From: Candidatus Oxydemutatoraceae bacterium
GTDB taxonomy: Bacteria; Pseudomonadota; Gammaproteobacteria; Poriferisulfidales; Oxydemutatoraceae
Assembly (NCBI GenBank): GCA_965220085.1
Contig: CBDCOZ010000003.1
Coordinates: forward strand, 864,001 to 928,000
Direction: 5' to 3'
Length of the DNA stretch: 64,000 nt
This document shows, piece after piece, positions 55,190-58,583 of this stretch (positions within the stretch are counted from its first letter, which is position 1; the number at the start of each line of letters is the position of its first letter). The notes under the pieces were generated by a model, which searched no databases, had not been told where the DNA came from, and saw only the letters and a program-made list of their open reading frames with translations. Made by a program: the position numbers and the translations under genes.

Positions 55190-55516
55190 TGAATCATGCC
55201 AGAAACACGAACGGCAGGAAGCGGAGCCGGGCCTGCGTTTGCGCCTTTTCCTTGAAGCCCCCCGCAATCATGCGAGCGCCCTGCGACGGAGAAAGGGAGT
55301 ATTATGGGGCGCGCGCAAGGAAGGCAGTGGGTCTGGCTTCCCAGGTTTTGCCTTTTGGTCATTATGGGGCGCGCGCAAGGAAGGCAGGGATACGCATGAA
55401 TGCATTCAATGAACGCTTATCGCCTATTCGGGAAGGATTCGCGGAGTTTGAAGCGGGTTTGTTGATGACGACCTGCGGACATTTAATGGTTGTCTGGTAG
55501 ACTATGCCTGTTATGG
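55190..55516 (+). mobile_element. Deleted IS481-like cassette: terminal repeat + orphan tag (GLRLRLFLEAP) + spacer + transposase remnant
   Basis: 55396-55516 (MNAFNER..IREGFAEFEAGLL) is homologous to 53114-53237; post-tag spacer resembles 58324-58370. Confidence 0.55.
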
Positions 55517-55593
55517 CGAATCATACCGGAAACATTTCGGACTGTCGGCATCAGCACGAGCTGTTGCAATATCAACACAGGAGGATTAGATCT

Positions 55594-58323
55594 GTGAATA
55601 TTGTCAATCCCATCACTGAGTTTGCCGGGCGCGGTCTCTGGCTATTGGCATTGTCGGCTCTGCTGGCATCGCTCGCCCTGAGCGCTCCGGCTCAGGCCCA
55701 GAACCAGCCCGCCACCGGCATGCCCGGCATCCAATACGAAACGGGCATAACGCGCCCCACCGATGATTCCAGGATATTCGGCACCATGGGCACCATGGCC
55801 GATGAAGATGGCCTCACCATAAGCAACATAGACAGAGACATGACCTGGCGATGGAGCGTGGCCGACACGCACAACGGCACCTACACCGCCCATCCCAACA
55901 CCACCTCACCATTCCGGATGCGGCGCTTCATCCCCGCAGATGCCGATGTGGGCAAGTTTCTGCAGGTCTGCGCATCCTTCAGGGACGATGCCGGCAACAA
56001 CGAGGAGCTATGCAGGCGGATAAGCATGAGTGTGCTGGATGTGGACGACCCGGCCCAAGTGGGAGGGGCACATGAGGGCTTCATAGAAGTGTTTGTGACC
56101 GCGACTGCCGCCAAACCCTACGTCTTCAATGAGGACGATTTGGTATTCATTGATAACGACGGTGACACTGTGACAGGCTTCCGCATAATCACTCTTCCCA
56201 GCGCTGGCACCCTCAGGCTCAACGGTATGCCCACAGGGGGATCCTGTGAGGATCCATTTGTGGAAGTATCCAGGGCCAATATAGGCACCCTCACCTATTT
56301 TCCGGCGGCGGGTCAATCGCCAACCAAGAGCGGCTCATATGCCTTTTTCGCCGTTCAGGCGCTTAGCAGCGGGGCCGATTACAACGACCCTTGCATAATG
56401 CATAACCATACCCTGAATCAAATCTCGATAAGATTGGTTACAGACCCCGACTCCGCCACCGGCGAGCCCGCGGTCACATATGCAAGCGGCATAAATGCCC
56501 CCACTGAGGATAGCCCCATCACCGCCAATCAAGGCAGCATAATGGATACCAACAATGACCCGCCCACCGCTCTGGGCGACATCAGATGGCAATGGAGCCA
56601 GGCGGATGGGCGCGACGGCGCCTATGCCGACATAACCGGCGCAACCGATGCCGCATTCACCCCGGGCGATAATCAGGTCGGCAAGTTCCTGCGGGTCTGC
56701 GCATCGTTCACCGACGAAGACGACAACGACGAGGAGCGATGCCTGCGGATAGAGGATGCGGTTGTCAATATCAATGATGACCCCACCGGCGCCGTCAGCA
56801 TCGGCGGCATCGGCGGTAGCATTGTGAGCGAGCACGAGGAGCTCAGCGTAGCCGGCAACATTGACGATGCCGATGGCTTCGACCCAGCGAATGTAACGTA
56901 TCAATGGCAGCAGGTCGCCAGCCCCTCGACGCCCACCGCCGATGCGGCCTGGGCCGACATCGCGGGCGCCGAGTCACGGACATTCGCTTCGGACCACGCC
57001 CAGGTGGGGCATCATCTGCGCGCCTGTGTGCTGTACACCGACAATCAGGGCACCGCCGAACGGGTGTGCAGCGGGTCCATCGGGCCCATCGTCAATGCGA
57101 ACGATGCGCCGGTTGCCGCCGCCGCCACCGTGTCGGTGTCCGTCGCTGCCAGCGCCGAGGACCCCTATCGCTTCAGCGTCTCGGACTTTCGATTCGACGA
57201 TGAGGATGGGGACGCTCTTGAGAGCGTAACTTTTGTGTCCCTCCCCGCTGTCGGCGGCCTGCTGGTGGGCGAGAGCGCCGCCGACATCGGTCAGATGGTG
57301 AACCGGGCCGACATTCCCACCATCGGCTACTATCCGGCGGACAACCAGAGCCCCAACCCCAACTATGCCAGTTTCAGATTCAACGTGACCGACGATGGCG
57401 ACGGCCCCGGCGGCGACGACACCGATGCCGCCCGCACCAGTAACGCTGCCACCATCACCATCAGCCTGGTATCCGCCGAGCCGATGCCTGCCACCGGTAA
57501 TCCTGCCATAACCGGCGGCCCGGCGCGACAGGGCGCGGCGCTGAGCGCCGGGCTCGGCACAGTGAAAGATGTCAACGGCATAGACACCGACACCATAATG
57601 TGGCGGTGGCAGGCCGTCAGCCCCTCAACATCCACCGGCACCGAGGAATGGGACGACATACCGGGCGCGACCAATGACGCATTTACTCCGGGACAGGCCC
57701 AGGTGGGCATGCATCTGCGCGTCTGCATCAGATTCATGGACAACCACAGCGCCCCCGCCAACGAGGGCCCGCTGTGCTCCGCCGCCACTGACCCGGTTGT
57801 CAATGTCAACGATGCCCCGGTGGCGACGGATGACACATACACAGTCGATATAGCGCCGGGCACTCCGTTGCTCACAGACTTCCGGTTCATAATCCCCCCT
57901 CAGGCCTTTCGGGCTGCCTACGACGATGCGGACGGCGATCGGCTGGCATCGGTCACCATCACCAAACTGCCGCCCGGCGAGCACGGCGGCCTGCTCGAAG
58001 GGTCAGATCCCGCTGGCACCATGAATACTCAGATCTTAGCCGACTCCAACAACGCACCCATCCGCCCCGCTGTGTTTCGGGTATCTGAGGACGGCGAGCA
58101 GTTTGTGGATGATGACGGCAGACCCCGCTTTCTCCATTTCTCCGCCAGCCTGTTGTTCCTCTCCAGCGAAGCCGGGTTCGTCACCGATGAAACCACTTTC
58201 AAATTCACCCTCAGCGATGGCGCCCTGAGCAGCAACGAGGCCACCCTGACCATCAGACTGGTGACTCTCCAATCTGGTTTGCGCTTGCGGTTGCGCCTGT
58301 TCTTGGAAGGCCCGTTGCGATAA
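55594..58323 (+). CDS. Secreted modular Ig/cadherin-like protein (adhesin-like 3; A-B-A-A-B-A-B) ending LRLRLRLFLEGPLR
   Basis: AGGAGG SD and GTG at 55594; signal peptide (APAQAQ); repeated VVN.ND.P linkers and D.DGD motifs. Confidence 0.87.
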   Translation: MNIVNPITEFAGRGLWLLALSALLASLALSAPAQAQNQPATGMPGIQYETGITRPTDDSRIFGTMGTMADEDGLTISNIDRDMTWRWSVADTHNGTYTAHPNTTSPFRMRRFIPADADVGKFLQVCASFRDDAGNNEELCRRISMSVLDVDDPAQVGGAHEGFIEVFVTATAAKPYVFNEDDLVFIDNDGDTVTGFRIITLPSAGTLRLNGMPTGGSCEDPFVEVSRANIGTLTYFPAAGQSPTKSGSYAFFAVQALSSGADYNDPCIMHNHTLNQISIRLVTDPDSATGEPAVTYASGINAPTEDSPITANQGSIMDTNNDPPTALGDIRWQWSQADGRDGAYADITGATDAAFTPGDNQVGKFLRVCASFTDEDDNDEERCLRIEDAVVNINDDPTGAVSIGGIGGSIVSEHEELSVAGNIDDADGFDPANVTYQWQQVASPSTPTADAAWADIAGAESRTFASDHAQVGHHLRACVLYTDNQGTAERVCSGSIGPIVNANDAPVAAAATVSVSVAASAEDPYRFSVSDFRFDDEDGDALESVTFVSLPAVGGLLVGESAADIGQMVNRADIPTIGYYPADNQSPNPNYASFRFNVTDDGDGPGGDDTDAARTSNAATITISLVSAEPMPATGNPAITGGPARQGAALSAGLGTVKDVNGIDTDTIMWRWQAVSPSTSTGTEEWDDIPGATNDAFTPGQAQVGMHLRVCIRFMDNHSAPANEGPLCSAATDPVVNVNDAPVATDDTYTVDIAPGTPLLTDFRFIIPPQAFRAAYDDADGDRLASVTITKLPPGEHGGLLEGSDPAGTMNTQILADSNNAPIRPAVFRVSEDGEQFVDDDGRPRFLHFSASLLFLSSEAGFVTDETTFKFTLSDGALSSNEATLTIRLVTLQSGLRLRLRLFLEGPLR

Positions 58324-58396
58324 CGCGAGTGACCGGCGGAGAAGGAGAATGTTATGAGGCGCGCAAGGGGAGCGAGACAGGATGCAAAGGCATGCA

Positions 58397-58583
58397 TTTC
58401 GGGAGGGGTTTGCGGAGTTTGAAGCGGGTCTGTCGCGGACGGCATGCGGACTCAATGAGCGTCGGACAGACTGTCCGGCATGGTTCCGCGCCCTCGCGAA
58501 GGGATTATATCGGCGAAGTTTCAAGCGCCCGTGACACGGCGCGATGGTCGCCCCCGGTGTCCGATGTGTCATGACATCACGCG
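58397..58583 (+). mobile_element. Degenerate 3' end of an IS481-like element, including the right terminal repeat
   Basis: Collinear similarity to 53149-53333 (GCGGAGTTTGAAG, CGTCGGA, ATGGTT, TTCAAGCG, TGTCATG.CATC). Confidence 0.6.

Follow-up and report, generated by a model that had tools for sequence, protein, structure and literature searches.

MIC231 of Bacillus cereus, which derives from the insertion sequence (IS) IS231, is an example of a mobile insertion cassette (MIC). MICs and transporter ISs consist of IS ends around passenger genes, with or without a transposase (PMC3129680). In Xanthomonas, Tn3-family MICs carry type III effectors (PMC4337579), and IS481 of Bordetella pertussis is described as a many-copy element whose insertions beside promoters can affect neighbouring genes (PMC6161684, PMC3053399). 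Here we analyse a stretch of 64,000 nucleotides (the window; C3:864001-928000) from the genome of an uncultured marine bacterium, in which the gene for adhesin-like 3, one of a large family of open reading frames (ORFs) that end in a common peptide tag, lies between cobA and mlaA among pieces of an IS481-like element. We propose, with a probability of roughly 0.55, that adhesin-like 3 sits in a decayed, transposase-less derivative of such an element, that is, in a cassette of the MIC type.

With the window's transposase remnant as query, a search of the whole genome (2.49 Mb, 3 contigs; coordinates prefixed C3: or C1: refer to these contigs and all others to the window) returned a 1,081-bp IS with 9 full-length copies that are 93-99.9% identical. 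Its inverted repeats are TGCATAATGCCAG on the left, with which the left terminus starts, and TGTATGATGCCAG on the right, where the terminus closes in CTGGCATCATACA; the termini are TG..CA (TGCAT..ATACA), the two ends agree at 10 of their first 13 nt, and a perfect 5-bp target duplication surrounds 7 of the 9 copies. The single transposase ORF of 326-360 aa (326 aa from MSYKAKQ) has no programmed frameshift and matches rve (E 1.3e-11), rve_3 (E 2.6e-11) and, as an N-terminal helix-turn-helix (HTH), HTH_28 (E 1.7e-7). In the copy at C3:1917003-1918283 this ORF has no stop inside the IS and reads past the right end into flanking DNA, so that the C-terminal extension differs from copy to copy. The best NCBIfam model is IS481 (NF033577; E 4.7e-52, profile positions 2-282 of 284), at 177.3 bits against a curated cut-off of 224 (117 bits for the IS3 model), and we therefore call the element IS481-like rather than counting it as an equivalog member. 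For both IS481 and IS3, TG..CA ends with duplications are described (PMC10045372). A single DDE ORF with rve and HTH domains, TG..CA ends, short inverted repeats and a short target duplication, all found here, are features of the IS481 family, and IS481-like transposases of ~50% identity occur in 10 of 12 genomes of the same bacterial family.

An iterated nhmmer profile of the element recovered 256 IS pieces from the whole genome, namely the 9 full copies, 102 left ends only, 97 right ends only and 48 internal pieces. The first ~50 nt of the left end are also amplified as head-to-tail 50-bp tandem arrays, some of them beside untagged genes (4 units at 51653-51843, at least 13 at C3:1901615-1902394 and 10 at C3:992161-992762), and no intact IS holds more than one copy of this unit.

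Within 55190-58583 the order left end, tag, spacer and transposase remnant occurs twice (all window features are on the + strand unless stated). An earlier note, made from the letters of this stretch without database searches, had read this order from recurring motifs, and the IS profile and motif counts bear it out. The 17-mer that it took for a terminal repeat, GAATCATRCCRGAAACA, corresponds to IS positions 2-18, and its "transposase 3' remnant" to IS ~851-1081, the last ~230 bp with the right end included; both are thus true IS481-like ends, and the intact copy that the note had hoped would define the inverted repeats exists ninefold. The 17-mer has 6 matches in the window at up to 2 mismatches (0.02 expected; none of 100 shuffles reaches 6), among them 55191 and 55518, within the left ends of the two units; genome-wide its family numbers 100 matches, many within the 50-bp arrays and some near untagged genes. 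For the right parts, GCGGAGTTTGAAGMGGG is found at 53163, 55441 and 58412, with one 2-mismatch match at 10217 (0.03 expected), and the remnant motif GCGGAGTTTGAAG likewise has three perfect matches in the window and one with 2 mismatches at 10217. The alignment of right parts that the note had named as a check has, over four sequences, 56 invariant columns and a mean column identity of 69%. Chance resemblance or misassembly is hardly a credible source of these repeats: the region is indeed repeat-rich, and short-read contigs are fragmented around 51.6-54.3 kb, but the shuffle controls and E-values down to 1e-145 speak against chance, and an independent short-read assembly has a contig that covers 55063-58312 and agrees with the window throughout.

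The second of the two units, 55517-58583, holds adhesin-like 3, which is bracketed by IS sequence on both sides. An IS left end (IS 1-71, at 55517-55579; the profile places IS 2-71 at 55518-55579, E 1.7e-9) directly abuts the ribosome-binding site GGAGG at 55580, and the 909-aa ORF runs from a GTG at 55594 to 58323. A spacer of ~64 nt (58324-58393), common by sequence comparison to about 65-77 other tag copies, links the tag to the last ~200 bp of the IS (58394-58583, IS 881-1081, right end decayed; profile 58394-58579 = IS 881-1067, E 1.3e-33). There are hence IS ends on both sides of a passenger gene, with no transposase inside other than the 3' remnant, which is the arrangement that defines a MIC. 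The protein, identified from its ORF, repeats and weak domain matches, has a signal-peptide-like start, repeat modules of ~245 aa and the C-terminal end LRLRLRLFLEGPLR; its Ig- and cadherin-like matches in Pfam all fall below the cut-off, and it has no sequence match in PDB and none among NCBIfam families. A consensus scan found no sigma-70-like promoter on the + strand inside the unit's left end. Near-identical copies of the unit were not found; its best match in the genome, at 86%, covers tag and spacer.

The right end of this unit pairs, by its flanking duplication, with a left end beside cobA. The bounded segment is therefore 51653-58583, with CTAAA on its left at 51648-51652, overlapping the cobA stop codon, and again on its right at 58584-58588 (flank comparison; left end C3:915653, right end C3:922583). 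The genome has 97 left-right pairs on the same strand at distances of 100-15,000 nt, of which 5 have identical flanking 5-mers, with 0.14 expected from 9,433 trans pairs, and 3 more agree at 4 of 5 flank positions (1.4 expected). In addition to the window's segment (C3:915653-922583, CTAAA), the perfect 5-bp pairs surround an internally duplicated IS (C3:601082-599756), an IS interrupted by an oppositely oriented tagged gene of 740 aa (C3:1730014-1733283, ACCGC), an interval enclosing tagged genes on the opposite strand (C3:1941592-1944465, AATCA) and a one-module paralogue of adhesin-like 3 (C3:684044-682164, AAGGC, extendable to the 8-nt repeat CCGAAGGC). This last unit consists of a left end (1-84), three family promoters, a leader, a poly-C start, the paralogue with tag and spacer, and a right part (884-1068), and it lies between housekeeping-like ORFs, one of which starts like aspartate decarboxylase (named by eye). 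It is 70% identical to the window's unit in the left end, 59-66% in the gene, 71% in tag plus spacer and 73% in the right part. Such similar divergence across all parts fits co-divergence of the two units from one bracketed ancestor, as far as sequence comparison can tell.

We suggest that a tagged gene came to lie between cobA and mlaA as part of a segment bounded by IS ends, which was inserted either with transposase supplied in trans or by homologous exchange, a double crossover, with a resident IS copy. Tandem and segmental duplication, both rife in this genome, would afterwards have reshaped the segment's interior, while the cassette ends decayed beyond mobility. We rejected the segment as a composite transposon: no complete IS lies within it.

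The tag and its linkage to the IS give further evidence. Stop-to-stop ORFs closing in ..LRLRLFLEGPLR number 216, including giants of 4,000-15,000 aa, and at the DNA level there are 251 tag copies, relics counted: 174 with the tag only, 65 with tag and ~64-nt spacer, and 12 in which tag, spacer and IS right part are contiguous. In 17 further copies the right part lies past an insertion or deletion. The family appears confined to this genome among those compared, as the back-translated tag pattern has 150 matches here and none in 30 relatives (18 of the same family, 12 of the same order; the reversed control gave 0), and the module DNA was found in none of 20 relatives. At 7 loci the spacer enters the IS exactly at profile position 849 (IS ~855), at ATGAA[TC]GCATTCAATGA; 4 more junctions, the first unit's among them, lie at 839-852, and variants at 881-891, including that of adhesin-like 3, come after a small deletion (adhesin-like 3) or a CACAAAC-rich insertion. 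At least 10 such junction loci carry at least 5 unrelated kinds of gene end before the tag, and their sequences diverge exactly from the IS right terminus onward, so that the right flanks differ. A shared junction with differing, IS-target-like right flanks argues that tag and spacer were already aboard and that tagged genes travelled with the IS ends. Identity of the tag-linked right parts is 71% with the intact IS and 75% among themselves, which points to an old lineage of their own.

Contiguity of tag, spacer and right part at 12 loci also raises the question of whether tag and spacer belong to the mobile element itself, the common C-terminus being delivered by an IS-derived repeat and serving as no protein signal. 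MAFFT did set tag plus spacer against IS ~760-850 with about half of the columns matching. However, the 111 nt before the junction score 9.0 against the IS by Smith-Waterman, no better than 2,000 shuffles (9.05 +/- 1.5), and we rejected an origin in the IS interior on this basis; moreover, 174 of the 251 tag copies have neither spacer nor IS, variation in the tag is mostly synonymous with the peptide constant, and the residues ahead of the tag do not come from the IS. We consider this explanation very improbable. Two further candidates were tried and rejected. The spacer is not a conserved RNA hairpin or terminator (alifold over 62 copies, -2.46 with almost no pairs; mean minimum-free-energy z-score 0.08), and the last 226 bp (IS 855-1081) are not a self-mobile mini-element, as the left flank is homologous by descent, matching 5-mers are absent and the right flanks differ from what usually comes after the spacer.

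Two side observations concern this junction. A 341-bp derivative at C3:221127-221467, resembling a miniature inverted-repeat transposable element (MITE), has IS 1-89 fused straight to IS 851-1070 with no flanking duplication, and breaks at ~851 as do the tag-linked right parts. Insertions of 70-290 nt rich in CACAAAC/TTGTTTGTG lie between spacer and right part at C3:42717-43119, C3:682164-682548, C3:1698901-1699449 and C1:196924-197391, and similar repeats fill the leaders of family genes.

The first unit, 55190-55516, had been read in the earlier note as an empty, tag-only copy of the same cassette. The relic tag (GLRLRLFLEAPRNH, 55230-55271, stop codon lost, by sequence comparison), the spacer (55272-55395) and the right part (55396-55516, IS 851-973, E 9.1e-27) are indeed there. 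The boundaries do not hold: the left end, located by motif search, keeps just 17 nt (IS 2-18, at 55191-55207), and the right part stops at IS ~973, where the next left end interrupts it. The spacer contains a 60-bp tandem duplication, 55301-55327 being equal to 55361-55387. We rejected the unit as a MITE, given the 17-nt left end, the missing right inverted repeat (the sequence stops at IS 973) and homology across its left edge. Many family genes have upstream of them a relic unit of tag and spacer that has decayed in the same way; promoter-like boxes (TTGCAA..TATAGT) come next, then a leader and an ATG with a poly-C start, and several of these relic units have a left end before them. The first unit departs from these only in having an IS right part where the promoter would follow. 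It may be a gutted or never-loaded relative of the cassette, with left end, relic tag, spacer and truncated right part.

Evidence also comes from the target sites. The triplet TTG stands at +6 to +8 past the right end in 36 of 106 right ends genome-wide, against a background of 2.1%, and the same pattern is seen in 5 of the 9 intact copies. The commonest hexamers there include the -35-like TTGCAA (8) and TTGACA (4), which indicates that the IS inserts 5 bp upstream of TTG, so that its right end comes to adjoin -35-like boxes. At 58583 in the window, CTAAA separates the right end from a promoter-like TTGCCG-16-TATAAT (58589-58616, consensus scan, 10/12 match) that lies 29 nt before mlaA.

This preference is the core of an explanation in which no cassette ever moved. 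Family genes lie head to tail, so the target falls just past the tag and spacer of the preceding gene; an IS landing there, right end promoter-ward, would decay in place, and old insertions would be copied within the family by tandem duplication and gene conversion. Such a scheme would suit the TTG signature, the intact IS at C3:362180 that lies between a spacer and a family promoter with the duplication GGCGC, and left ends that begin 53, 54 and 76 nt past tags. It would also suit the relic units ahead of family promoters and genes, the homology that extends beyond the first unit's left end, the absence of duplications from most left-right pairs and the free duplication of short stretches in this genome. 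However, a family promoter occurs in none of 29 flanks of tag-linked right ends, which are diverse and promoter-like but not of the family, as with mlaA in the window. Diverse right flanks with one internal junction imply that the junction is older than those insertions. Perfect duplications around cargo-bearing pairs in housekeeping surroundings, and the co-occurrence of left and right ends around clusters of tagged genes, also tell against it. This explanation accounts for part of the enrichment described below and not for the non-family right flanks; we regard it as tentative and on balance unlikely.

As the earlier note had anticipated, IS ends are commoner beside tagged genes than beside untagged ones. 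The comparison used a crude set of 2,004 genes, taken as non-overlapping ORFs of 100 aa or more, of which 173 are tagged. The start of a same-strand right part is found no more than 400 nt downstream in 20 of 173 tagged and 19 of 1831 untagged ORFs (odds ratio (OR) 12.5, p 3e-12); for a left end no more than 700 nt upstream the counts are 18 of 173 and 27 of 1831 (OR 7.8, p 7e-9). When all tag copies are considered, 26 right-end pieces up to 400 nt downstream have the same orientation as the tag and none the opposite one. ORF starts are unreliable because of long leaders and poly-C frameshifts, and the test was therefore repeated on clusters, which supersedes the gene level: 189 tagged ORFs of at least 100 aa formed 83 same-strand clusters, of which 18 have a left end upstream, 19 a right part downstream and 9 both (4.1 expected; OR 5.5, p 0.004).

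Several points weigh against a cassette all the same. Both ends occurred at just 2 of the 173 tagged ORFs in the gene-level test, which is the chance level; the cluster-level test rests on distance cut-offs set by the analysis; all these counts treat paralogues as independent, which makes the p-values generous; and the TTG targeting could by itself account for part of the association between IS and tag. About 14 left-right pairs enclose same-strand tags and only 2 of them have a perfect repeat. The adhesin-like 3 unit has no direct repeat of its own (TATGG on the left, CTAAA on the right). Its TG..CA termini are lost at both ends, each of which agrees with the intact inverted repeats at 8 of 13 positions (counted by eye). 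The cassette ends are decayed, at 63-80% identity to the intact IS, and no intact IS of the unit's own subfamily was found in the genome. Identity of the unit's right part is 63.5% with the intact IS and 67-77% with other right parts; with the lost termini, the former figure makes present-day mobility unlikely, as judged from the sequence. The left edge of the first unit is no element boundary, since 54554-55207, its 17-nt left end included, is 88% identical to C3:110941-111590 and the homology crosses that edge. Transposition and homologous replacement of a resident IS yield the same product. Finally, the empty-site allele that the earlier note had proposed to look for was not found in the contigs of the public run, which contain no empty-site joint, or in relatives, and in 6 relatives no cobA was found in the 10 kb upstream of mlaA.

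The note's broader claim, that adhesin genes were passengers of non-autonomous IS elements, stands in part: some cargo-bearing segments do have duplications, and 55517-58583 lacks one of its own. Its extension to the dispersal of the whole family fails, because no IS end lies near 55 of the 83 tagged clusters. This suggests that the cassette route covers a minority of the family, and with two thirds of clusters free of any IS trace, tandem duplication and recombination remain the main drivers of its spread.

A different sequence of events would place the vehicle before the cargo. In this scheme, which we think improbable, the units that have IS ends, a relic tag and a spacer would be landing pads: an IS481-like vehicle without transposase, directed to sites 5 bp upstream of -35 boxes, would have spread first, and genes would have been loaded into these pads or swapped between them later by homologous recombination. 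In the loading step family genes would enter through flanking direct repeats of tag and spacer, an integron-like logic run on RecA. If true, lineage-specific surface-protein genes would have been planted beside housekeeping promoters.

The surroundings of the MIC-type cassette that we favour show how far the locus has been reworked. At 49-60 kb the window holds, in order, uracil-DNA glycosylase, rimI, cobA (50866-51651), a 6.9-kb repeat-rich stretch whose last 3.4 kb are the units studied, mlaA (58645-59406), folE and a TolQ/ExbB-type cluster. The bounded segment opens with the array of four ~50-bp units, each of which copies the first ~48 nt of the left end (51654-51700 = IS 2-48, E 8e-6). 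It contains another IS remnant at 52885-53333 (IS 610-1081 with the right end, then CCGAA and TTGAGC; rve_3 match; profile 52885-53329 = IS 610-1067, E 2.7e-145). A duplicate of the cobA 3' end closing in CTGAA follows at 54136-54365; repeat comparison shows 54136-54435 to be 91% identical to the cobA-side left-end region 51423-51722. Two left-end units come next at 54366-54499 (IS 2-48 and IS 2-93, E 9.8e-6 and 9.6e-13), placed by the profile at 54367-54413 and 54417-54499. With two untagged coiled-coil membrane gene copies and a toxin-antitoxin-like ORF also inside 51653-58583, this mixed interior makes the "cassette" a heavily remodelled pile.

The coiled-coil genes (51877-52581 and 53299-53985) are untagged paralogues for a membrane-anchored protein of 54-nt repeats (FERMEAKFDDRFKEVDA), and the IS remnant lies inside the 0.9-kb segmental duplication (96-98% identical) to which they belong. 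The ORF at 54554-55190 on the - strand has a ribbon-helix-helix-like start and a RelE-like tail, and may be a decayed toxin-antitoxin pair; the whole of its 246 aa has no Pfam match, and it is duplicated at 88%, each copy immediately left of an IS left end. Upstream, three tandem 179-bp copies (49937-50473, 96-99% identical) extend from the last part of the uracil-DNA glycosylase gene into the first part of rimI, and each remakes a short ORF.

These results offer a concrete and in part tested explanation of how a very large tagged family of surface proteins (~216 genes in the 2.5 Mb of an uncultured marine bacterium) came to have some of its members between housekeeping genes, and they document an IS481-like element that inserts just upstream of -35-like boxes. 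The genomic pattern also resembles recombination-shuffled multigene surface families, with a conserved leader and tag plus spacer, a variable middle and relic "empty" units. That reading needs no IS, but it leaves the shared junctions with different right flanks, and the duplications, unexplained.

Like MICs, the window's unit has left and right IS ends around a gene unrelated to transposition, with no working transposase inside, an intact related IS is present in the same genome, and some copies have target-site duplications. Unlike MICs, it keeps ~230 bp of the transposase 3' end on the right, joined at a fixed junction to tag and spacer; its cargo comes entirely from one paralogous family, its ends are strongly decayed, and its past mobility is putative. 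The Tn3-family MICs of Xanthomonas similarly carry surface or host-interaction genes as passengers between transposon ends, but they involve another transposase family and mechanism and are recent and plasmid-borne, whereas those described here are chromosomal fossils. The element shares with IS481 of Bordetella pertussis a single-ORF DDE transposase with rve and HTH domains, TG..CA ends, many copies and promoter-adjacent insertions. It differs in its score of 177 bits against the cut-off of 224, its 5-bp duplication and the tandem amplification of its first 50 nt. The target of IS481 is NCTAGN, and that of the present IS looks like N5 + TTG. The kind of element is already known, from MICs and from ISs with passenger genes; what is particular here is that the cargo comes from a single family, that the junction on the right is fixed and that the targeting is directed at -35 boxes.

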